Source: Candidatus Nanopusillus sp. (GTDB taxonomy: Archaea > Nanobdellota > Nanobdellia > Nanobdellales > Nanobdellaceae). Taken from it: 32,000 nt of DNA. The stretch is taken from the NCBI GenBank assembly GCA_028275885.1, contig JAPWTW010000005.1, positions 1-32,000 on the forward strand. The letters run 5' to 3'. The notes under the pieces were generated by a model that saw only the letters and a list, made by a program, of their open reading frames with translations, was not told the origin of the DNA and did no database searches. The position numbers and the translations under genes were made by a program. Numbering within the stretch: the first letter of the stretch is position 1; each line of letters starts with the position of its first letter. Positions 1 through 16,744 of this stretch are shown here, in pieces.

Positions 1-356
1 CAATAAATGGACAAACATATTATATAATAGATGCTAATAAAATAAATGAAGCAAATATAGCAGGATTTTATACATATAAAGAATGGGTACCTAACTTTGT
101 AGCAGCAATGAACACACCAGGAACATACGCAGCAGGACTACCAGGAAATTCTCCAGTATTCCAATGGGAAAACTTAACAGGAACTGTAGCGTACCAAACA
201 AAGGTATATGGAGAATATGGACCATTTCCTGGAGGGGCCGTACTAGTACAGTCCAATAGAACTATAATTCCATATGGAGTAAATACCAATATTCCTGCAG
301 GTACATACTTATCGAGTTTTTATGCTCCTCAGCAAGTATACAATTCTTCTAGATAA
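1..356 (+). CDS. 3' end of a larger secreted/surface-protein gene (5' part lies off the left edge)
   Basis: Frame 3 is open from nt 3 to the TAA at 354-356. Hand translation of 3-107 gives INGQTYYIIDANKINEANIAGFYTYKEWVPNFVAA with no stop, so track ORF 108..356 is only the Met-delimited tail. The product is Gly/Pro/Thr/Tyr/Asn-rich and the DNA is visibly GC-richer than its surroundings. It contains PGNSP, which also occurs in the neighbouring 851-aa protein. No family recognised. Confidence 0.5.
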   Translation, partial: INGQTYYIIDANKINEANIAGFYTYKEWVPNFVAAMNTPGTYAAGLPGNSPVFQWENLTGTVAYQTKVYGEYGPFPGGAVLVQSNRTIIPYGVNTNIPAGTYLSSFYAPQQVYNSSR

Positions 357-371
357 TTTTTTTGACAATTT

Positions 372-2927
372 TTACGATACACTTATAACATAGGGAACTC
401 CATAAGTAACTATAACCCAATCCAAATACATATAACCTGATCCACCTCCCGAGCCTGCTGAAATGAACAAATAAGGATTCTCACTATTATACATGCTTGC
501 GATATCTTGTAAATAATTTATAGTAAGAGAATTTGAAAGACTACTATAATATTCTTCAGAACCAAATGTTCCTGGTATAAAGTTGTTATTATTTACCTCA
601 CTCCATGTAAATGGTAAATATTTATTCAGAGCTTCTTGGGGATTTGCTGGTTGATTAAACGCCGTATTATATGCATTTATGTATGATTGTATGAATATTG
701 GTTCTCCAGTTATTGTATTTGTAGATGCTGGTGGGTTTGGTGGTATTGCATATGCACTACATGTAGAACATCCAAATAATCCGCAGTTACATTCCCAACT
801 ATATTTTTCTGAAGCAAGTGAATAATTAAATATATTTCCATTCATTAAGAAAAATATATTTATATTATTGTTATTACCGGTCTGAAACCAATTATATAAC
901 CAAAACACACCATATTGATAATATTGTTGATTATTTTTCTGATTAGGTGGCATAAATGGGAAATAGTCTTCTCCTTTATATCCTTTTATATTTCCAGTAT
1001 TATCCTCTACAAAGAAATATTTTAAACTAGGACAACCCAAAGGGCATGTAAAACTATATGAAGTATCCCATCCAGATCCTGAATAATAATAATCATAATA
1101 TCCACTTGGATTTGGATTTTTTGTATATTGTGTAGTTAAAAAATATCCTAAAGTATTATTATATTGCAATATCCCAACATAATAACCAGGACTATTTCCT
1201 GGTTCTGCACCCACAAATTTCCAACCATATTCATACATAAACATTGGAAAATTAAGTGGTAAATATGTTTCTTCCCCAACCCATATTCCTATTCCTATAT
1301 ATTTATTTCCAACTTGATTTTTAAGATTATAATTATTATAATAATTTACAGTATTTATATTTAAATTACCATTATCTGTAATATATGATAATACTACTGC
1401 ATGTGAAACATAAGGGCTAGGATATAAACAATCTATATTTATTCTAGAAAAGCAAGAATCTTCCCATGGTATTCCAGAAAAGTATACAAATGTTTGTAAT
1501 CCCAATCCATTTTGTGATTTAGATAATCTATAAAATGTATTTTTTAAAATATCAGATGTAATTAATGCATAAGATCCTTGATTTGTTCCATTAACCATTA
1601 ATAATCCTTGAAAAGGTCTATCAATTACAATACCTATATTAGCAGTTCCATTTAAATAAATATTTACATTATTATATGGAGGTAATATATCATTAAATTG
1701 TAAATTTTGATAACATACTTTATATTTACTATAATCACAATTATCCGAAGGTATCATCTCTACCCAATATGCATTATTATCTTGATATGGATAAAAATTT
1801 ACATATATTGGAAATACATTTAATCCATTATCATATATAACTGCTGAATATGGATTATTTGGATCTAATGCATAAGGATCACCTCCAATTGTTCCATTTA
1901 AATATGGTAATAAATTTTTATCACTAAATCCAACAAATAATGATATAATATTACAACCAAAATTATTATTATATAATGAAGGAATATTTAATAGATTAAT
2001 GAAGAAATAATAATTCCCATTATATTTTCCAGCATACCATGAAGGTAATGCATAATATTTACCATTATAATTAAGTAAAAATACAACATTATCCCCAACA
2101 TATGGAGAATTTTGAATATAATTACTTAAAGGAGGACCAATTACAACTAATATATTTTGAAAATCATCCATAGAATATCCTCCTTTATTTGATAAAGGTA
2201 TAGCTAAATATGTTCCATTAATTATTTTTATATTTACTGTATAATCATAATATTTAGAATTTGGATAAGAATTTCCTAATAAAGATATTGCTGGAGTTAT
2301 ATTTATATATAAAGGTTTATCTAAATAGAAATTTTGTATATTTTGACTTTTATCTGATTTACATAATATACAAAAATATATAAAACTACCTGCCTGATAT
2401 TTTATACGATTATTTCCAACAATACTACATTCATATTTATTTCCTTGATATGTATATATAACATTATTTCCTTCATAAGTATTATTTGATAAACTAATTA
2501 CAGATTCTAATTCAACATTATTTAATGAACTTATATCAAAAGATGTTGAAATAATATTTATTATATTTTCAGGATTTATTTTTAATATATTATTACTATT
2601 ATTAACTCCACTATAAATATTTGTAATATTATAATATATATTCCAATTATTTTGATCTTCAATAAATGATTGAACATATTTTATATCAAATCCATTCTGA
2701 TAATATATACTTACCATAATTGTTGAATTTATGGTATTAAAATTATTGTTTTGGTTGTTTTGATTATTTTGGTTTTGTATTGAAATATAATATTGAGATG
2801 GATTATTAATATGATAATATTTAAATATTGAAGTTAAAATAAATATAATTCCTGCAAGGATTATAATAAATATTGGAAGATAATAACCTATAAAAAGCAT
2901 GAGACTATCAAAAATTTTTCCTCTCAT
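372..2927 (-). CDS. Large (851 aa) N-terminally anchored, Asn/Tyr-rich, Cys-paired extracellular protein; possible lectin-fold (DUF2341/LamG-like) C-terminus; function unknown
   Basis: A long uninterrupted ORF in a stop-codon-rich AT genome. It starts MRGK followed by ~25 hydrophobic residues. It has a (QNN)n linker, about eleven N-x-S/T sequons by my count, and 14 Cys in seven close pairs. The C-terminal GYMYLDWVIVTYGVPYVISVS resembles the terminal strand of DUF2341/concanavalin-like modules. The start overlaps the stop of the upstream mini-pilin ORF (ATGA). Confidence 0.8.
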   Translation of the reverse strand: MRGKIFDSLMLFIGYYLPIFIIILAGIIFILTSIFKYYHINNPSQYYISIQNQNNQNNQNNNFNTINSTIMVSIYYQNGFDIKYVQSFIEDQNNWNIYYNITNIYSGVNNSNNILKINPENIINIISTSFDISSLNNVELESVISLSNNTYEGNNVIYTYQGNKYECSIVGNNRIKYQAGSFIYFCILCKSDKSQNIQNFYLDKPLYINITPAISLLGNSYPNSKYYDYTVNIKIINGTYLAIPLSNKGGYSMDDFQNILVVIGPPLSNYIQNSPYVGDNVVFLLNYNGKYYALPSWYAGKYNGNYYFFINLLNIPSLYNNNFGCNIISLFVGFSDKNLLPYLNGTIGGDPYALDPNNPYSAVIYDNGLNVFPIYVNFYPYQDNNAYWVEMIPSDNCDYSKYKVCYQNLQFNDILPPYNNVNIYLNGTANIGIVIDRPFQGLLMVNGTNQGSYALITSDILKNTFYRLSKSQNGLGLQTFVYFSGIPWEDSCFSRINIDCLYPSPYVSHAVVLSYITDNGNLNINTVNYYNNYNLKNQVGNKYIGIGIWVGEETYLPLNFPMFMYEYGWKFVGAEPGNSPGYYVGILQYNNTLGYFLTTQYTKNPNPSGYYDYYYSGSGWDTSYSFTCPLGCPSLKYFFVEDNTGNIKGYKGEDYFPFMPPNQKNNQQYYQYGVFWLYNWFQTGNNNNINIFFLMNGNIFNYSLASEKYSWECNCGLFGCSTCSAYAIPPNPPASTNTITGEPIFIQSYINAYNTAFNQPANPQEALNKYLPFTWSEVNNNNFIPGTFGSEEYYSSLSNSLTINYLQDIASMYNSENPYLFISAGSGGGSGYMYLDWVIVTYGVPYVISVS

Positions 2928-3112
2928 TTTATTAGATCAGAAATTGGTTGATTTGTAACATTATTAAAGCTATTATTAATGAAATTAAATGACTGATTTG
3001 ATGCTATATTTCCACCTAAAAATATTTTATATCCAAACATAACTGCCAAAATTAATATGATCAGTGCAATAACTAGAATAATTACTATATCTATTGATAT
3101 ACTATTTTTCAT
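2924..3112 (-). CDS. Mini type-IV-pilin-like protein (62 aa): basic N-terminus, one hydrophobic helix, glycosylation-sequon-rich tail
   Basis: The N-terminus MKNS is followed by ISIDIVIILVIALIILILAVMF. The Asn/Gln/Ser tail carries NQS, NNS and NVT sequons. The ORF is paralogous in architecture to 9422..9628 and 9681..9866. A TATA-like TTTATAAT lies at -30..-23. The stop overlaps the start of the 851-aa ORF. Confidence 0.6.
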   Translation of the reverse strand: MKNSISIDIVIILVIALIILILAVMFGYKIFLGGNIASNQSFNFINNSFNNVTNQPISDLIK

Positions 3113-3134: not shown

Positions 3135-3142
3135 ATTATAAA
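3135..3142 (-). promoter_or_regulatory. TATA-box candidate for the mini-pilin/851-aa operon
   Basis: The minus-strand 8-mer TTTATAAT occupies -30..-23 relative to the ATG at 3112, the same phase seen at most operon-leading genes in this window. AT-rich background limits specificity. Confidence 0.4.
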
Positions 3143-3430
3143 TTTTATTGAAAAACCTCTTTCTATAATAATACAATATTATTGAATAAATTAAAAAGAA
3201 CATAGTATGAATGAAAATATTACAAAAAATAAATTATAAATTATCTTAAACTTTCTTATATAATAAAATTATATATTTCTGAAGTTATTTCAAACAATTT
3301 TGAATATGAACTTCTTAATACATTTTCACAATTTATTTAGGTATTATTAATAGTGCAGAAATATGATAATAAACTATTTATTAAAACAAAAATTGAGAAT
3401 ATTGCCAATAAAATTAAATATAAAACAATA

Positions 3431-5499: not shown

Positions 5500-6174
5500 T
5501 TATTTATTTTGAACCAAAAACATTGAATGATCAATATGATATGGCTCCAATCTTACTTCTTTTATTATCTTTAATCCATAATCTTCCAATTCTTTTCTTA
5601 CTTCTTTAAATATTTCTTTTGGATCTTTAGATACATCAATTGATCTTGCCTTTACAGCCAAAAATCCATATCCCTTATTCTTTAAATAATATTCAATATT
5701 TTTAATAAATATTTTTACCTGATGTGGTTGTGCAACATCTTGATATATTAAATCAACCTTTGTAACAATATGTAAATACTCCCATGGCTTATCAGCATCT
5801 GCCAATATTCCAATAATATTTTTTCTATCATATAATACTGGAACTAGATCTCTCAATATTCTTGAAGAAATATCTACACCAAATATTAATCCATTTTTAT
5901 CAATTATATCAGAAATATGGGATGCTGTTGTACCAGAAGCAATACCTAAATATAATATTTTATCACCTTTATTAATTGGCACTTCTCCAATATTTTTCTT
6001 AATTGCTGCTGCTAATTTAGATCTATTTGTAATCCATTCTCTATATTCTTCATTATTATATTTTACCAATCTTTCTCCATATACATTTTTTCCAGGTACC
6101 AAATTTTTTGTATATAATTTTCCCTTTTCATCAATAAATATATTTTTATTTTCCTTTAATTGTTTTAATTTCAT
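5500..6174 (-). CDS. flpA: Fibrillarin-like rRNA/tRNA 2'-O-methyltransferase
   Basis: YGERL...EYREWITNRSKLAAAI......KGDKILYLGIASGTTASHISDII...GLIFGVDISSR..RDL.......NIIGILADA.KP..Y..........IYQDVAQP.Q is the fibrillarin signature. ATGA overlap with upstream nop5. Confidence 0.95.
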   Translation of the reverse strand: MKLKQLKENKNIFIDEKGKLYTKNLVPGKNVYGERLVKYNNEEYREWITNRSKLAAAIKKNIGEVPINKGDKILYLGIASGTTASHISDIIDKNGLIFGVDISSRILRDLVPVLYDRKNIIGILADADKPWEYLHIVTKVDLIYQDVAQPHQVKIFIKNIEYYLKNKGYGFLAVKARSIDVSKDPKEIFKEVRKELEDYGLKIIKEVRLEPYHIDHSMFLVQNK

Positions 6175-7154
6175 TTTTCATATAATTCCCTAAACCTTTT
6201 ATCCAATTCTTCCTTCAATTTCTGATATATTGTCCTTCCACTTAAATCTGCTTTTACTGCAATAGATATTTTTGATGCCAATGTCCTAGCCATTGCTCCC
6301 CTTCTTTTTGGAGGTAATTTTTGTAAATATGGATGATTAAATATTACACCATGTTTTGGAGGTTTTATACCTTTAGATAAATGCAAAAATAATGCTTTTT
6401 CTGCACCTAAAACCTGTATTGTTGAAGAAGGTAATAATGATAATTCCTTTAATCCACCTGCCAATAATATTAATCTTGCACCTATTTTTGGAGTAGCAAT
6501 TTCTGATAAATTTGGAGCAATTTCTTTCATTAATTTTTCAATATAATCTTCCAAATCTTTTCTTAAATCATATAACTCCTTTATTTTTAATGATATTTTA
6601 TTCATTATTTCCAAATCTTCTTTTTTAAATATTTTTCCACCCATTGTTTTATTAATATTGTACTTTTTCATTAATTCTTCTCTATCAGAATTTATAATTG
6701 TTCTTATAAATTTCTCATGATCTTCAATTTCTTGTGAAATTTCTGGAAAATATAATCCATACCATTCCCTAAATCTTTCCATAAATAAATTTAATGATTT
6801 ATTTAAATCATCAAGAAAACTTATTGCCTGAATTATTATTTCATCTCTACTTATTGAATCTGATATTTGTTCTTTTAATAAATCAATAAATAATTTATTA
6901 TCAATCTTCTCTTCTCCAATTTTTTCCAATGCCTTTCTTATTATACTTGTATCTTCTGTATACTTATATCCATCAAATTTTTGTCCAATAAAAATATCAT
7001 TTTCTTTTATATAACTTTTTAACTTTTCTGGTAACTTGTTTTTATATATTTCCTTTAAATCATCCAAATTTAATTCAACATTAATTTTCTGAAAATTTTC
7101 TAAATTATCATCAAATATATATAATCCGTTATATCTCAATAAAACATAGCTCAT
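6171..7154 (-). CDS. nop5: Nop5 (Nop56/58) C/D box snoRNP core protein
   Basis: The NOSIC/Nop domain motifs are present: EWYGLYFPEIS, APNLSEIATPKIGARLILLAGGLKELSLLPSSTIQVLGAEKALFLHL....KPPKHGVIFNHPYL...P...RGAMARTLASKISIA. It lies directly upstream of fibrillarin. Confidence 0.9.
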   Translation of the reverse strand: MSYVLLRYNGLYIFDDNLENFQKINVELNLDDLKEIYKNKLPEKLKSYIKENDIFIGQKFDGYKYTEDTSIIRKALEKIGEEKIDNKLFIDLLKEQISDSISRDEIIIQAISFLDDLNKSLNLFMERFREWYGLYFPEISQEIEDHEKFIRTIINSDREELMKKYNINKTMGGKIFKKEDLEIMNKISLKIKELYDLRKDLEDYIEKLMKEIAPNLSEIATPKIGARLILLAGGLKELSLLPSSTIQVLGAEKALFLHLSKGIKPPKHGVIFNHPYLQKLPPKRRGAMARTLASKISIAVKADLSGRTIYQKLKEELDKRFRELYEK

Positions 7155-7465
7155 TTTATTATCTTTAATGATATTCTAAATCCTTTTGATGGAATTTGCA
7201 TATTTATAAAATAATTTTTGAAAAATCTTTCATCATTTGCAACATCTAAAAATCTTCTATATATTCTTATTTGATATGTTTCATATATTTTTGTACCTCT
7301 TTTTCCCAGTGTTCTCATAGTGGGTATTCTAATTATTTTTGTTGGTAAATTAACAGGACCTCTCTTTTCAATACCTAATTGTTCAATTATTTTTAACAAT
7401 TGATTAGTAAACTTATTCATTGTCTTTAAATCTGTTCCCCACATTTTAATCCTTATCATTGACAT
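7151..7465 (-). CDS. rps10: 30S ribosomal protein S10 (uS10)
   Basis: IRIKMWGTDLKTMNKFTNQLLKIIEQLGIEKRGPVNLPTKIIRIPTMRTLGKRGTKIYETYQIRIYRRFLDV fits the uS10 pattern (RIkl.g.d...ld......i...a...g....GPvpLPTk...........G.G...w..fe.RiHkRlidi). ATGA overlap with nop5. Confidence 0.85.
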   Translation of the reverse strand: MSMIRIKMWGTDLKTMNKFTNQLLKIIEQLGIEKRGPVNLPTKIIRIPTMRTLGKRGTKIYETYQIRIYRRFLDVANDERFFKNYFINMQIPSKGFRISLKIIK

Positions 7466-7489
7466 AAATTGATAATGTATATTATATTT

Positions 7490-9370
7490 TTAAATACTTT
7501 CTACAGGTTCAATTTTCAATATATAAAATATTTTATCTAATACTTGTTTTGTTAAGTATACTAGGAATAATCTGTGTGGATATTTATCTTTATAATTTAA
7601 TATTGGAACATTTTGGTAAAATTCATTAAATGATCTAATCAAATCTATTGAATATCTATATAAATGGTTTAATTCCAATGACTTTTCAATATCATAAATT
7701 ATATCTTTAAACTTAAATAAATTAATAATTAGTTTTTCTTCATATTTATTTAATTCATTTATTTCAAATTTTTCAGGTATTTTATCAACTTTATTTAATA
7801 AAGATTTTATCCTTGCATATGTATATAAAAAGTATATTGCATTTCCCTCTTCCAAATTTAACATTTTATCAATATCAAACAATATTGTAGTATTTCTATC
7901 ATATTTTAATATTTCTAATGATATAAAACTTTTTACTATCCTTTCAGAAGTTTCTCTATCTTTAAATTTCTCATATGCAATATTATATAATTTTTCATAT
8001 AAATCATCAACATTTATATACAATCCTTTTCTTCCAGACATTTTTATATCCTCATTTATTCCAAAAATTTTTGCAGTATTTCTATGCAATCTAACCAATC
8101 CATATCCATAATATATATATTTAGATTCTTTATCAATTTCTTCAATTACTCTTTTTACCATTAATTGATTATGCATTTGTTCCATTCCAATTATATTTAT
8201 TGAAATCTTACATGGCTCAATTTCTTTTCCTCCATTATTTATTTCATATATATATTCTCCGTTTGGTTGCTTTATATATTCTTTAAATTTAATATTTGAT
8301 TTAATTATACCATGTTTCCACATTGCATATGCAATATCTTTTGCAATATATGTAGTAGTTCCATTTGATCTTACAAGAACCTTCTCTTTATTTGAATATG
8401 CCTTATATATATCTTTCCATCTTGTTAAATCTAAAGAAATTGTATTATTCTTTTTTATCATTTTATTTTCTTCCAATATTTTTAATGCACTGTCAAATAA
8501 TTTATATCTTAATATATCTGACTCTCTAATAATTATATTAAAATATATATTAAATTTCCACAATGTATTTAACTGTTCATATAAAATTCTTTCAGATATT
8601 CTTTTAGATAAATAATACACTTCATTATTACCCTCTTCAATCATCTTTATAATATTATATTTGTATTTTTCCAATTCTGGAATTATTTCATACAATTTAT
8701 TAACTATTACATATATAAAATCTCCATAATAATGATCAAATTTTTCAGGAACCTCATATCCATATAAACTTTTCAATATATTCATTCTTTCCAAAAATAT
8801 TTTCCTAATTTTTTCTTCATATTCTTCCTTATATAGATTTTCTCTTATTAAAAATTCTTTAATATTATTTATTACTTTTTCCAAATTAAAATCTTTTGGC
8901 TCTTCAGGTATCTTTAAATAATATATTCCCAAAATATTATCACTAACCTGAACCCCAGTATCATCTATATAATTTATTACATATACATCATAGTTTAATG
9001 TTTTAAATAACCTATATAGAGAATCCCCAATTATTGAATTTCTTAAATGACCCATATGTAATGCTTTGTTTGGATTTGCAGATGTATGCTCCAAAAATAT
9101 TCTAATATTCCTTTTTTCAAAATCAAGTAGTTCTTTATAATTTTCCAATAATTTTCTTTTATTCAATTTAACATTTAAATATCCATTTATAAATTTATAA
9201 TCCAAAACAAATTCTTTTATTTTTTCAATTATTTCATTTACTAATATATTTGGATCTTTTCCCTTTTTCATTTCTTTGAATAATTTAATTGATATATCAT
9301 AATCTAAATTTTTTAGAGGTTCAGAAAATTCTATATCATAATCTTTTAATTTTTCTCTTATTATCCACAT
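7490..9370 (-). CDS. argS: Arginyl-tRNA synthetase (start reassigned to Met24 of the track ORF)
   Basis: Class I motifs: EHTSANPNKALHMGHLRNSIIGDSLYRLFKTLNYDVYVINYIDDTGVQV (HIGH region) and IKMSGRKGLYINVDDL (KMSKS-equivalent). The C-terminus is anticodon-binding-like. The track ORF runs to 9439, but the first 23 codons (MTFLYHKFLCICHIFKLFIKINF) are unconserved-looking and would cover the shared promoter. The ATG at 9368-9370 has a TATA-like element at -22..-29. Confidence 0.9.
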   Translation of the reverse strand: MWIIREKLKDYDIEFSEPLKNLDYDISIKLFKEMKKGKDPNILVNEIIEKIKEFVLDYKFINGYLNVKLNKRKLLENYKELLDFEKRNIRIFLEHTSANPNKALHMGHLRNSIIGDSLYRLFKTLNYDVYVINYIDDTGVQVSDNILGIYYLKIPEEPKDFNLEKVINNIKEFLIRENLYKEEYEEKIRKIFLERMNILKSLYGYEVPEKFDHYYGDFIYVIVNKLYEIIPELEKYKYNIIKMIEEGNNEVYYLSKRISERILYEQLNTLWKFNIYFNIIIRESDILRYKLFDSALKILEENKMIKKNNTISLDLTRWKDIYKAYSNKEKVLVRSNGTTTYIAKDIAYAMWKHGIIKSNIKFKEYIKQPNGEYIYEINNGGKEIEPCKISINIIGMEQMHNQLMVKRVIEEIDKESKYIYYGYGLVRLHRNTAKIFGINEDIKMSGRKGLYINVDDLYEKLYNIAYEKFKDRETSERIVKSFISLEILKYDRNTTILFDIDKMLNLEEGNAIYFLYTYARIKSLLNKVDKIPEKFEINELNKYEEKLIINLFKFKDIIYDIEKSLELNHLYRYSIDLIRSFNEFYQNVPILNYKDKYPHRLFLVYLTKQVLDKIFYILKIEPVESI

Positions 9371-9887: not shown

Positions 9888-9958
9888 TGGGCCCGGGGGG
9901 ATTCGAACCCCCGTCAATGGGTCTGGAGCCCACCGTCCTACCACTAGACTACGGGCCC
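9888..9958 (-). tRNA. tRNA-Trp (anticodon CCA), 71 nt, no intron, CCA not encoded
   Basis: Hand-folded reverse complement: GGGCCCG TA GTCT AGTGGTA GGAC G GTGGG CTCCAGA CCCAT TGAC GGGGG TTCGAAT CCCCC CGGGCCC A. The acceptor and T stems are fully paired, U33 is present, and the anticodon is CCA. By my count 48 of 71 nt are G/C. The 5' G is the last base of the aIF-1A TAG stop codon. Confidence 0.9.
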
Positions 9959-14334: not shown

Positions 14335-14424
14335 GGGCCCGTAGCTCAGAGGTGGAGCGCCGGCCTTATAAGGCTACGCTCCTAAGAAAGCCGGAGGTCA
14401 GGGGTTCAAGTCCCCTCGGGCCCA
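14335..14424 (+). tRNA. tRNA-Ile (anticodon UAU) with an 18-nt intron at canonical position 37/38; 72 nt mature; CCA not encoded
   Basis: Hand fold: GGGCCCG TA GCTC AGAGGTG GAGC G CCGGC CUUAUA[intron]A GCCGG AGGUC AGGGG TTCAAGT CCCCT CGGGCCC A. The acceptor GGGCCCG and A73 are typical of archaeal tRNA-Ile. The anticodon loop is C-U-UAU-A-A after intron removal. Confidence 0.85.
14371..14388 (+). other. tRNA intron (18 nt) forming a canonical bulge-helix-bulge (3-4-3) splice motif
   Basis: The central 4-bp helix pairs 14365-14368 (CUUA) with 14383-14386 (UAAG). The 3-nt bulges are 14369-14371 (UA|A) and 14387-14389 (AA|A), each with the splice site after the second bulge nt. The outer helix is G14372-C14382 and G14373-C14381. 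Confidence 0.75.
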
Positions 14425-15826: not shown

Positions 15827-16744
15827 TCAGCTAGATACTAAAGGTTGTAATATGCTGTTAAATAAATTATATGGTAAAGCCCCTGCAAACTCAAACATTA
15901 TATATTTATAATCCTCTGTTGTATATACTGAAGGACTTAATCCATATTGCTTTAATTGATTTAATACATTATTAACCTGTTGAACTGCTTGGAATGTAAT
16001 TGATGATGTCTTTACAACTACTATAAATGTTGGAGTTCCTCCAATTCCATATGTGTCTCTATAATATTTTAATTCATTATCTATTTGATTATAGTATTTT
16101 GAACTATTTACACAAGATTCGATTTTATTAACATCCAATCCTAAAGATTGTGCCTTTTTATTAAATTCTCTATATACATCTTGTTGACTTGGTAAAGTAT
16201 TCCAAGACACGCCTTGCATTTGATTATACCAAGTCCAGTTTGCAAATTGATCCCATGTATTAAATCCATATAATGTATATACACATGTTAAATATTGTGA
16301 TGTTAGATTTGCATATGGGTGTATCTCATATAATGGAAAATTTATATATACCCAGGCTATTTTTCCATTGTCTATATAATTTTGTCTAATTTGTGGGAAT
16401 GTTTGTAAGTGAAATCTATCACAATATGGACACGCATAATCTGAGAATTCATATACAACAACATTTACATTACTCGGATTTCCATATACTGGATCTATAT
16501 TTGAAATATTTGGCAATGGTACCTGTGGTAATGTTTGTAAATATGCTTGCAATTGATTTGAAGAACTACTAGATGACACATATATTTTTATATTTGATAT
16601 TGAATTGGCTATAATATAAGATCCTAAAACTACTGATATTGCCAATAATATAAATCCTATTATTATTGATTTTTCTACATTAAGATTGTACTCCCATTCC
16701 TTCTTTTCTTTATTTTCTTCAGTTTTTTCTTTTTCCTTTTCCAT
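15827..16744 (-). CDS. Membrane-anchored DsbA-like thiol:disulfide oxidoreductase (thioredoxin fold, CPYC active site), exported
   Basis: A charged N-terminus and one TM helix (SIIIGFILLAISVVLGSYIIA) are followed by a poly-Ser linker. Then comes VVVYEFSDYACPYCDRFHLQTFPQIRQNYIDNGKIAWVYINFPL..HPYA ... GIGGTPTFIV. This matches DsbA/Thioredoxin_4 (ivEFsDyqCPyC.rf......l...yi..gkv....r.fPl..H..A ... gv.GTPtF.i). Confidence 0.8.
   Translation of the reverse strand: MEKEKEKTEENKEKKEWEYNLNVEKSIIIGFILLAISVVLGSYIIANSISNIKIYVSSSSSSNQLQAYLQTLPQVPLPNISNIDPVYGNPSNVNVVVYEFSDYACPYCDRFHLQTFPQIRQNYIDNGKIAWVYINFPLYEIHPYANLTSQYLTCVYTLYGFNTWDQFANWTWYNQMQGVSWNTLPSQQDVYREFNKKAQSLGLDVNKIESCVNSSKYYNQIDNELKYYRDTYGIGGTPTFIVVVKTSSITFQAVQQVNNVLNQLKQYGLSPSVYTTEDYKYIMFEFAGALPYNLFNSILQPLVSS

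Follow-up and report, generated by a model that had tools for sequence, protein, structure and literature searches.

The window analysed here, a stretch of 32,000 nucleotides from Candidatus Nanopusillus sp. (GenBank assembly GCA_028275885.1, contig JAPWTW010000005.1), has a G+C content of about 23% and encodes L21e, Rpo4, fibrillarin, Nop, MCM, EF-1a, TBP, and other archaeal housekeeping proteins; the organism is an ectosymbiotic nanoarchaeon, as a preliminary description made from the sequence had supposed. Two genes on the reverse strand near one end of the window are the subject of this work: a small open reading frame (ORF) for a micro-protein and, directly after it, a large ORF for a surface protein, which share four bases of stop and start codon (Table 1). 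Both ORFs were recovered where the preliminary description had placed them, and the translational coupling that it read from the overlap extends well beyond this genome. The gene pair and the overlap recur in four further genomes, namely Nanobdella (MJ1), Nanobsidianus (Nst1), YN1, and one Nanopusillus metagenome-assembled genome (MAG), so that the adjacency of the two genes expected for related genomes was found in each of these relatives. The orthologues of the large protein that carry names are MJ1_0040 (Nanobdella), YN1_3820 (YN1), and Nst1_036 (Nanobsidianus). The small and the large gene are one conserved overlapping unit. A TATA-box-like sequence precedes the micro-ORF, and because its position fits the known archaeal spacing between the TATA box and the transcription start site, a leaderless bicistronic transcript is suggested.

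Table 1. Features of the locus, of its surroundings, and of its copies in host DNA. Coordinates refer to the window unless a sequence handle is given; L002–L005 are the genomes of the four relatives, L005 being the Nanopusillus MAG, and L001, L008, and L009 are host sequences.
Feature	Location	Strand	Basis or remark
Micro-protein ORF, 62 aa	2924..3112	-	ORF list
Large surface protein ORF, 851 aa	372..2927	-	ORF list; orphan family restricted to Nanopusillaceae
ATGA, micro-ORF stop overlapping large-ORF start	2924..2927	-	sequence; same overlap in L002, L003, L004, L005
TTTATAA, TATA-box-like	3136..3142	-	centred 27 nt upstream of micro-ORF ATG; kept in window and L005
Predicted signal-anchor transmembrane helix, residues 4-38 of large protein	2814..2918	-	AlphaFold2 helix; unusually conserved
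Low-complexity Q/N spacer, residues 39-63	2739..2813	-	sequence; pLDDT<50
Predicted beta-sandwich (Ig-like) stalk domains, residues 64-320	1968..2738	-	AlphaFold2 strands, pLDDT 60-85; C167, C186, C189; 121-240 fastest-evolving
C-terminal head, residues 321-851, probable ConA-like jelly roll with long insertions	375..1967	-	AlphaFold2 and Foldseek; the part present in host islands
Convergent type II membrane protein, ~344 aa, 3' end (last 117 codons)	3..356	+	67.5% identity to L005 344-aa protein, E=5e-43
VKOR pseudogene, directly upstream of micro-ORF	3147..3417	-	tblastn with L005 VKOR, E=2e-10, three frame-shifted pieces
bPH_2-like membrane protein, 185 aa	3460-4017	+	sub-threshold bacterial-PH match; conserved beside locus in all relatives
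Transmembrane-anchored Thioredoxin_4/DsbA-like protein	15827..16744		intact in window
Nine-gene cluster (outside window, beyond coordinate 1)	L005 12805-19429; L004 12480-19184; L002 9433-14373; L003 13269-18610
Host island, S. ohwakuensis YN1HA (host of YN1), complete chromosome AP031374	L001 8001-10331; about 1,658,176-1,660,500 of AP031374
Host island, Thermoprotei MAG contig of 58% GC	L008 ~845-3110		31% GC, same two genes
Chimeric convergent gene	L008 2478-3290	-	host-composition N-terminus and symbiont ectodomain
Host island, Stygiolobus sp. RP850M contig	L009 ~5640-9360		almost whole large gene and intact convergent gene

The micro-protein begins with MKNSISID, continues with the hydrophobic segment IVIILVIALIILILAVMF, and ends in a polar tail with three N-glycosylation sequons (N39, N46, and N51). 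The preliminary reading of a short MKNS terminus, a helix of about 20 residues, and a tail with three sequons holds, the helix measuring about 22 residues. Among the five aligned orthologues, which are 48–85% identical, the transmembrane helix is conserved and all three sequons are kept across four genera. The ratio of non-synonymous to synonymous substitution rates (dN/dS) is 0.16–0.36. With the recurrent pair and its overlap, this ratio takes the micro-ORF beyond a chance observation; it is a real gene under purifying selection. The topology of its product is probably N-in/C-out, which would place the tail outside the cell. A 49–53-aa protein from a gene cluster downstream of the locus in the relatives is a paralogue of the micro-protein (z = 7–11, compared with 1–2.4 for a control small transmembrane protein).

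Such a protein recalls a pilin, and the preliminary description had treated it as a type-IV-pilin-like subunit with the large protein as the pilus tip or adhesin. According to this explanation, the micro-protein would be a type IV pilin of minimal size, matured by a prepilin peptidase. Very short archaeal pilins do exist, such as M. maripaludis MMP1685, and one pilin hallmark is found in the micro-protein, a hydrophobic N-terminal helix of about 20 residues after a short charged segment; it can also be glycosylated. Type IV pilus systems and archaella are encoded by Nanoarchaeota (PMC6142677). However, a regular-expression search for the FlaFind class III site, [KRDE][GA]/[ALIFQMVED][ILMVTAS]x3 (the slash marking the cleavage point), gave no matches in five small and six large orthologues, so the class III signal that the preliminary description had expected in the micro-protein was not found; position -1 of the would-be cleavage site is occupied by N, S, or D and never by G or A. 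Searches with the Class_IIIsignal, Pilin_N, and archaellin profiles of Pfam and NCBIfam returned no match at E<=1, with sub-threshold unrelated matches only. Prepilin peptidase, ATPase, and platform genes were detected neither among the Pfam-scanned ORFs of the window (most ORFs of at least 90 aa) nor within 9 kb on either side of the locus in the four relatives. Nothing points to a pilus tip, and the large protein has a conserved membrane anchor of its own, which fits a membrane-resident protein and not the end of a filament. The micro-protein is thus not supported as a canonical pilin by its sequence, and a peptidase-processed pilus with a tip adhesin is very unlikely. Degenerate pilin ancestry may nevertheless be considered, because the micro-protein has its paralogue in the neighbouring cluster and one protein of about 370 aa from the same cluster keeps a class-III-like motif of the FlaFind type, [DE][AG]/[IL][IV]AS, in the relatives.

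The large protein is 100% identical to one database entry and belongs to a family of 45–56 members, all of them nanoarchaeal (Nanopusillus, Nanobsidianus, Nanobdella, and YN1) or located in host contigs. When 1.84 billion cluster representatives were searched with a profile, 120 hits were obtained, mostly fragments, and no relatives beyond this family. Pfam and NCBIfam contain no family for the protein or for any of 29 homologues, and a search of PDB sequences with the family profile produced only noise (IL-21R, E = 0.19), in agreement with the preliminary impression that no characterised family is involved. The single distant full-length member, found in another nanoarchaeote (L006), is 24% identical and retains the anchor helix and the C-terminal strand; no micro-ORF precedes it, and the convergent gene and the cluster are not nearby. 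A search seeded with the distant member P0112 added no relatives. The family member P0165 of Candidatus Nanopusillus massiliensis, on a 607-kb contig, has 459 aa, about 54% of the query, which suggests a split or truncated gene.

The large protein starts with MRGK and a hydrophobic stretch, continues with a Q/N spacer containing QNQNNQNNQNNN, and ends with GYMYLDWVIVTYGVPYVISVS; the start and the QNN linker after the anchor had been described correctly. Residues 1–60 show identities of 0.79–0.83, among the highest of all 30-residue windows (the peak, 0.85, is at 301–330), the dN/dS of the anchor helix is 0.11–0.19, and even the relative from L006, at 24% identity, preserves the helix motif IFIIILAG.xFIL. 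Conservation among the highest in the protein argues that the helix is retained and functionally constrained and would not be a disposable signal peptide. Over its whole length, the large gene has a dN/dS of 0.44–0.50 and evolves three to six times faster than the neighbouring housekeeping genes for L21e, fibrillarin, and Nop (0.07–0.14). This raised ratio matches the excess of non-synonymous single-nucleotide polymorphisms reported for hypothetical surface proteins with an N-terminal anchor in Nanoarchaeota (PMC6142677). In codons 121–240, which belong to the stalk, pairwise comparison with two relatives gives dN/dS of 1.2–2.4 at an unusually low dS of 0.06–0.14; either diversifying selection or recent recombination may lie behind these values, which in such short windows are noisy estimates.

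The protein contains 14 cysteines, as noted previously, of which 12 form six close pairs; the seventh close pair of the preliminary description was overstated, since 158 residues separate C167 from C325. Only C167, C186, C189, and C325 are found family-wide, and C397/C405 are widespread. The other eight cysteines are lineage-specific, and the lineage-specific close pairs are located in variable, indel-rich regions.

The AlphaFold2 model of the full-length protein, constructed from the family alignment, contains a helix at residues 4–38, the disordered Q/N spacer, and an all-beta ectodomain, consistent with the extracellular appearance noted earlier; the predicted local distance difference test (pLDDT) value is 58, and the predicted template modelling score (pTM) is 0.62. 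A separate model of the head (m9d8ff3b2a757, residues 321–851) reached a pLDDT of 67 and a pTM of 0.78. Conserved elements of the head are the invariant sequon N344-G-T, the block YDNGxNVFPIYVNFY, and, as the last strand, GYMYLDWVIV. A Foldseek search of the PDB with the full-length model found nothing significant; the top matches were shaft pilins of Gram-positive bacteria (Ig/CnaB-type; E = 0.02, template modelling score (TM-score) below 0.2), which reflect generic immunoglobulin (Ig)-like sandwiches. With the head model, about 45 of the 50 top PDB neighbours were concanavalin A (ConA)-like lectins or glucanases, among them the L-type lectins Emp46p and VIP36, calreticulin, and lectins of legumes. 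The most favourable values were E = 0.012, a probability of 0.91, and target-normalised TM-scores of 0.47–0.49, and no match reached E<=1e-3. The few named matches among the viral structures of BFVD were also ConA-like or LamG proteins, with nothing significant. A ConA-like fold is therefore weakly but consistently indicated by the model, and a lectin-type head is somewhat favoured. The earlier suggestion of a large lectin-fold protein is supported in that such lectins dominate the neighbours of the head, but none of the matches is significant. The preliminary description had also compared the C-terminal strand, which is indeed present, with DUF2341/concanavalin-like modules, a comparison that receives no support from hidden Markov models (HMMs): those of DUF2341 (PF10102) and of LamG and Laminin_G_3 did not match the large protein or its 29 homologues at E<=1, nor the excised segments 240–345 and 600–851 of four to five members each at E<=10. 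The likeness presumably resides at the level of motifs, such as GDNVVF...YYALPSWYAG...FVGFS and the terminal YLDWVIV strand, which the HMMs did not confirm.

The same list of neighbours raises the question of an enzyme. The ConA-like superfamily takes in GH7, GH16, and PL20 enzymes, and the head could be a glucanase- or lyase-type domain that opens the S-layer glycan coat of the host; Cel7 and a glucuronan lyase are present among its structural neighbours. Degradative surface proteins have been proposed for Nanobdella (bioRxiv 10.1101/2023.10.27.564410). On the other hand, lectins dominate the match list and the enzyme matches have probabilities of only 0.11–0.13; a catalytic motif of the ExDxxE type is not evident among the invariant residues, and neither the large protein, its 29 homologues, nor the excised segments have a glycoside hydrolase or polysaccharide lyase match in Pfam. 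We consider a surface glycan-degrading enzyme highly improbable.

The gene convergent with the large gene adjoins it in all four relatives. The preliminary description connected the two products by the peptide PGNSP, which both contain. This link is rejected as a chance match, because PGNSP is not conserved in the homologues of either protein; the association itself stands on synteny and on the joint transfer described below. On the other side, an intact VKOR gene is located directly upstream of the micro-ORF in Nst1, YN1, and the Nanopusillus MAG and is absent in Nanobdella. In the window it is a pseudogene between the gene for the bPH-domain protein and the micro-ORF, with in-frame stops inside the Cys loop and no recovered C-terminal CxxC. 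The DsbA-like oxidoreductase reported earlier was confirmed as a transmembrane-anchored protein. The context is thus one of disulfide formation, with a DsbA-like protein in the window and VKOR adjoining the pair in relatives.

Beyond the convergent gene, Nst1, YN1, MJ1, and the Nanopusillus MAG share a cluster of nine genes, for proteins of about 400, 48, 61, 53, 309, 369, 282, 162, and 500 aa; each starts with a single hydrophobic helix, and none belongs to a Pfam family. This cluster is a candidate envelope machine, and the pair, the convergent gene, and the cluster might together build or anchor a structural component of the envelope, for example an S-layer anchor or the cone-shaped organelle or portal by which Nanobdellales attach, instead of providing a free adhesin. 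The position of the cluster directly beyond the convergent gene and the micro-protein paralogue inside it speak for this explanation, as does the fact that the proteins of the attachment organelle await identification (PMC11420986; bioRxiv 10.64898/2026.06.04.730037). However, the cluster lies outside the window; the distant family member of L006 has no micro-ORF, convergent gene, or cluster nearby; and the S-layer candidates of Nanobdella are other genes, MJ1_0160 and MJ1_0707. A role as a structural envelope component appears unlikely. An S-layer identity of the large protein itself was rejected, because its Nanobdella orthologue, MJ1_0040, differs from MJ1_0160/MJ1_0707, candidates that also have orthologues in YN1.

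Homologues of the large protein labelled Sulfurisphaera, Stygiolobus, and Thermoprotei were found to lie in host DNA, where they form low-GC islands in three host (Thermoprotei) genomes. The search was seeded with the large gene and so covers transfers of this locus, as distinct from those of other nanoarchaeal genes genome-wide. When all neighbouring nanoarchaeal genes were used as tblastn queries, the islands held only the large gene, truncated or frameshifted, and the convergent gene, and they are centred on the 3'–3' junction of these two. In the S. ohwakuensis YN1HA chromosome, a lower-GC stretch contains the C-terminal 460 residues of the large gene and the convergent gene, 64–67% identical to those of YN1 itself. 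A bPH-domain protein beside this island seemed to be in synteny with the bPH gene of the window, but it was rejected as part of the island, as the two show no similarity. In the Stygiolobus contig, which also carries molybdopterin dehydrogenase, Mrr, and transposase genes, the large gene is frameshifted near codon 133. The island of the Thermoprotei MAG contains a chimera: codons 1–60 of its convergent gene, at 64–67% GC, are the source of the start, of a basic segment, and of a transmembrane helix, and codons 61–270, with 24–39% GC, encode the ectodomain of the nanoarchaeal convergent protein, fused to them in frame. At its other side, this island seems to have entered a host ORF whose N-terminus resembles a metallophosphoesterase. 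Such a gene suggests that the host has domesticated the ectodomain of the convergent protein.

In a neighbour-joining tree, the YN1HA copy groups with YN1 (100/100), and the Thermoprotei copy, which is 64% identical to the Nanopusillaceae MAG protein P0043, joins these two as their sister (99/100); the Stygiolobus copies fall within the Nanopusillus/Nanobsidianus clade. Each host copy is nearest to its cognate or a co-occurring nanoarchaeon. Because the host copies take separate positions in the tree, at least three independent symbiont-to-host transfers of this locus are indicated. An earlier study reported four unannotated proteins as transferred between clade 2 Nanoarchaeota and Thermocladium (PMC6142677).

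These islands can be understood in two ways. Possibly, the large protein is a lineage-specific membrane protein that evolves fast and does housekeeping work in the envelope, without relation to the host, and the host copies are non-functional remnants of DNA that leaked where the cells touch; the copies of the large gene, which lack an anchor or signal or are frameshifted, look like such remnants. However, the same two genes were captured three times, the convergent gene is intact with a transmembrane helix in every host, and one copy is an in-frame chimera; this explanation is quite improbable. A more far-reaching interpretation is that the large and convergent proteins are the host-contact pair of the symbiont, captured repeatedly by hosts, at least one of which would have domesticated the convergent ectodomain on a host-derived anchor, either to fend off further nanoarchaeal attachment, with the ectodomain as a decoy or exclusion factor, or to use it as a recognition tag of its own. 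We regard it as a distinctly speculative and rather unlikely proposal; if true, DPANN attachment would gain its first molecular handle, and a host would for the first time be seen to have domesticated symbiont contact genes.

We favour, with a probability of about 0.5, the interpretation that the products of the pair form a glycosylated, lectin-like, two-subunit surface complex for cell–cell contact. The leaderless bicistronic operon, specific to Nanopusillaceae, would encode both subunits. The micro-protein would be the single-pass membrane subunit, with three N-glycans on its short external tail. The large protein would stay anchored by its uncleaved, sequence-constrained N-terminal helix and reach outward through the Q/N spacer and the Ig-like beta-sandwich stalk to a ConA-like jelly-roll head of about 530 residues at the tip, in which lineage-specific disulfides might staple the variable loops. 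The head would bind a glycan or glycoprotein ligand at the envelope surface for contact with another cell, that of the host, and the pair would work together with the convergent membrane protein. The restriction of the family to ectosymbiotic Nanopusillaceae and their hosts supports this interpretation, and the surfaces of N. acidilobi are known to be glycosylated (PMC4935971). The parts of the proposal differ in strength: that the large protein is a surface protein anchored in the membrane, glycosylated, and stabilised by disulfides, and that it is made along with a micro-protein partner, is very likely, and ligand binding in host contact is a tentative prediction. Established here are the reality, coupling, and conservation of both genes, the conserved anchor, the beta-rich ectodomain, the raised evolutionary rate, and the lack of pilin hallmarks; topology, glycosylation, the fold of the head, ligand binding, and the part played in host contact are inferred.

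Several observations weigh against the proposed complex. No fold match is significant (best E = 0.012, TM-score below 0.5), and the confidence of the models is moderate (pLDDT 58 and 67). The large protein has exactly 11 N-x-S/T sequons, the number counted in the preliminary description, and 14.7 are expected from its composition, so it is not enriched in sequons, and enrichment was rejected as an argument. That the two products interact physically is suggested by a single line of evidence, the coupling of their genes, and the basis for a role in host contact is circumstantial.

Two tRNA genes were found elsewhere in the window. A 90-nt tRNA at 14335–14424 (+) scores 63.9 bits with Rfam; ARAGORN assigns it no anticodon, and the gene is probably that of an archaeal tRNA with an intron. 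The other, at 9888–9958 (-), is a normal tRNA-Trp.

The operon deserves attention because neither the cone components nor the host-docking proteins of Nanobdellales/Nanopusillaceae have been identified (PMC11420986; bioRxiv 10.64898/2026.06.04.730037). It is conserved in all cultured terrestrial members (MJ1_0040, YN1_3820, and Nst1_036), surface-directed, and fast-evolving, with a lectin-like predicted fold, and it was overlooked by earlier surveys that relied on detectable signal peptides. Named candidates are thereby available in the cultivable co-cultures MJ1–Metallosphaera and YN1–Sulfurisphaera. That three host lineages have recurrently captured these two genes points, independently and unexpectedly, to the locus mattering at the symbiont–host interface.

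When the pair is compared with known systems, archaeal type IV pilins (class III signal; M. maripaludis MMP1685/EpdE) resemble the micro-protein in small size, N-terminal hydrophobic helix, and glycosylated tail, whereas the micro-protein has no [KRDE][GA] cleavage motif, pilin Pfam match, or adjacent assembly genes. The putative nanoarchaeal S-layer proteins (NEQ300, MJ1_0160/MJ1_0707, and Nps760) occur in the same organisms and are, like the large protein, envelope proteins of large size, rich in beta structure, and open to glycosylation; they are, however, different genes, and their anchors are C-terminal or absent, whereas that of the large protein is N-terminal. From the DUF2341 (PF10102)/LamG modules of MshQ-type pilus-associated proteins, the large protein differs in that their HMMs do not match it at E<=10. 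The best structural neighbours of the head are the L-type lectins Emp46p, VIP36, Pterocarpus, and Griffonia (PDB 2a6x, 2dur, 2gme, and 1lec; probability at most 0.91, target-normalised TM-score 0.40–0.49), with which it would share a two-sheet jelly roll closed by the terminal strand; it differs from them in an identity of 4–8%, a non-significant E-value, and about 280 extra residues in insertions.

The closest parallel comes from the same clade. MJ1_0179 of Nanobdella aerobiophila combines a ConA-like domain, a fold of the Ig-like type, and a transmembrane helix at the N-terminus, and a role in host recognition was proposed for it (bioRxiv 10.1101/2023.10.27.564410). The predicted N-terminal helix, Ig-like stalk, and ConA-like head of the large protein follow the same plan, but no sequence relationship between the two was detected, the large protein has no sequence-detectable lectin domain, and its head is about double such a domain in size; in addition, a coupled micro-protein and a convergent gene accompany its family as partners. 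The anchor, Ig-like stalk, and lectin-like head are thus a known design for DPANN surface proteins, although the family itself is an orphan; unusual additions to this design are the conserved coupled micro-protein, the convergent partner gene, and the repeated capture by hosts.

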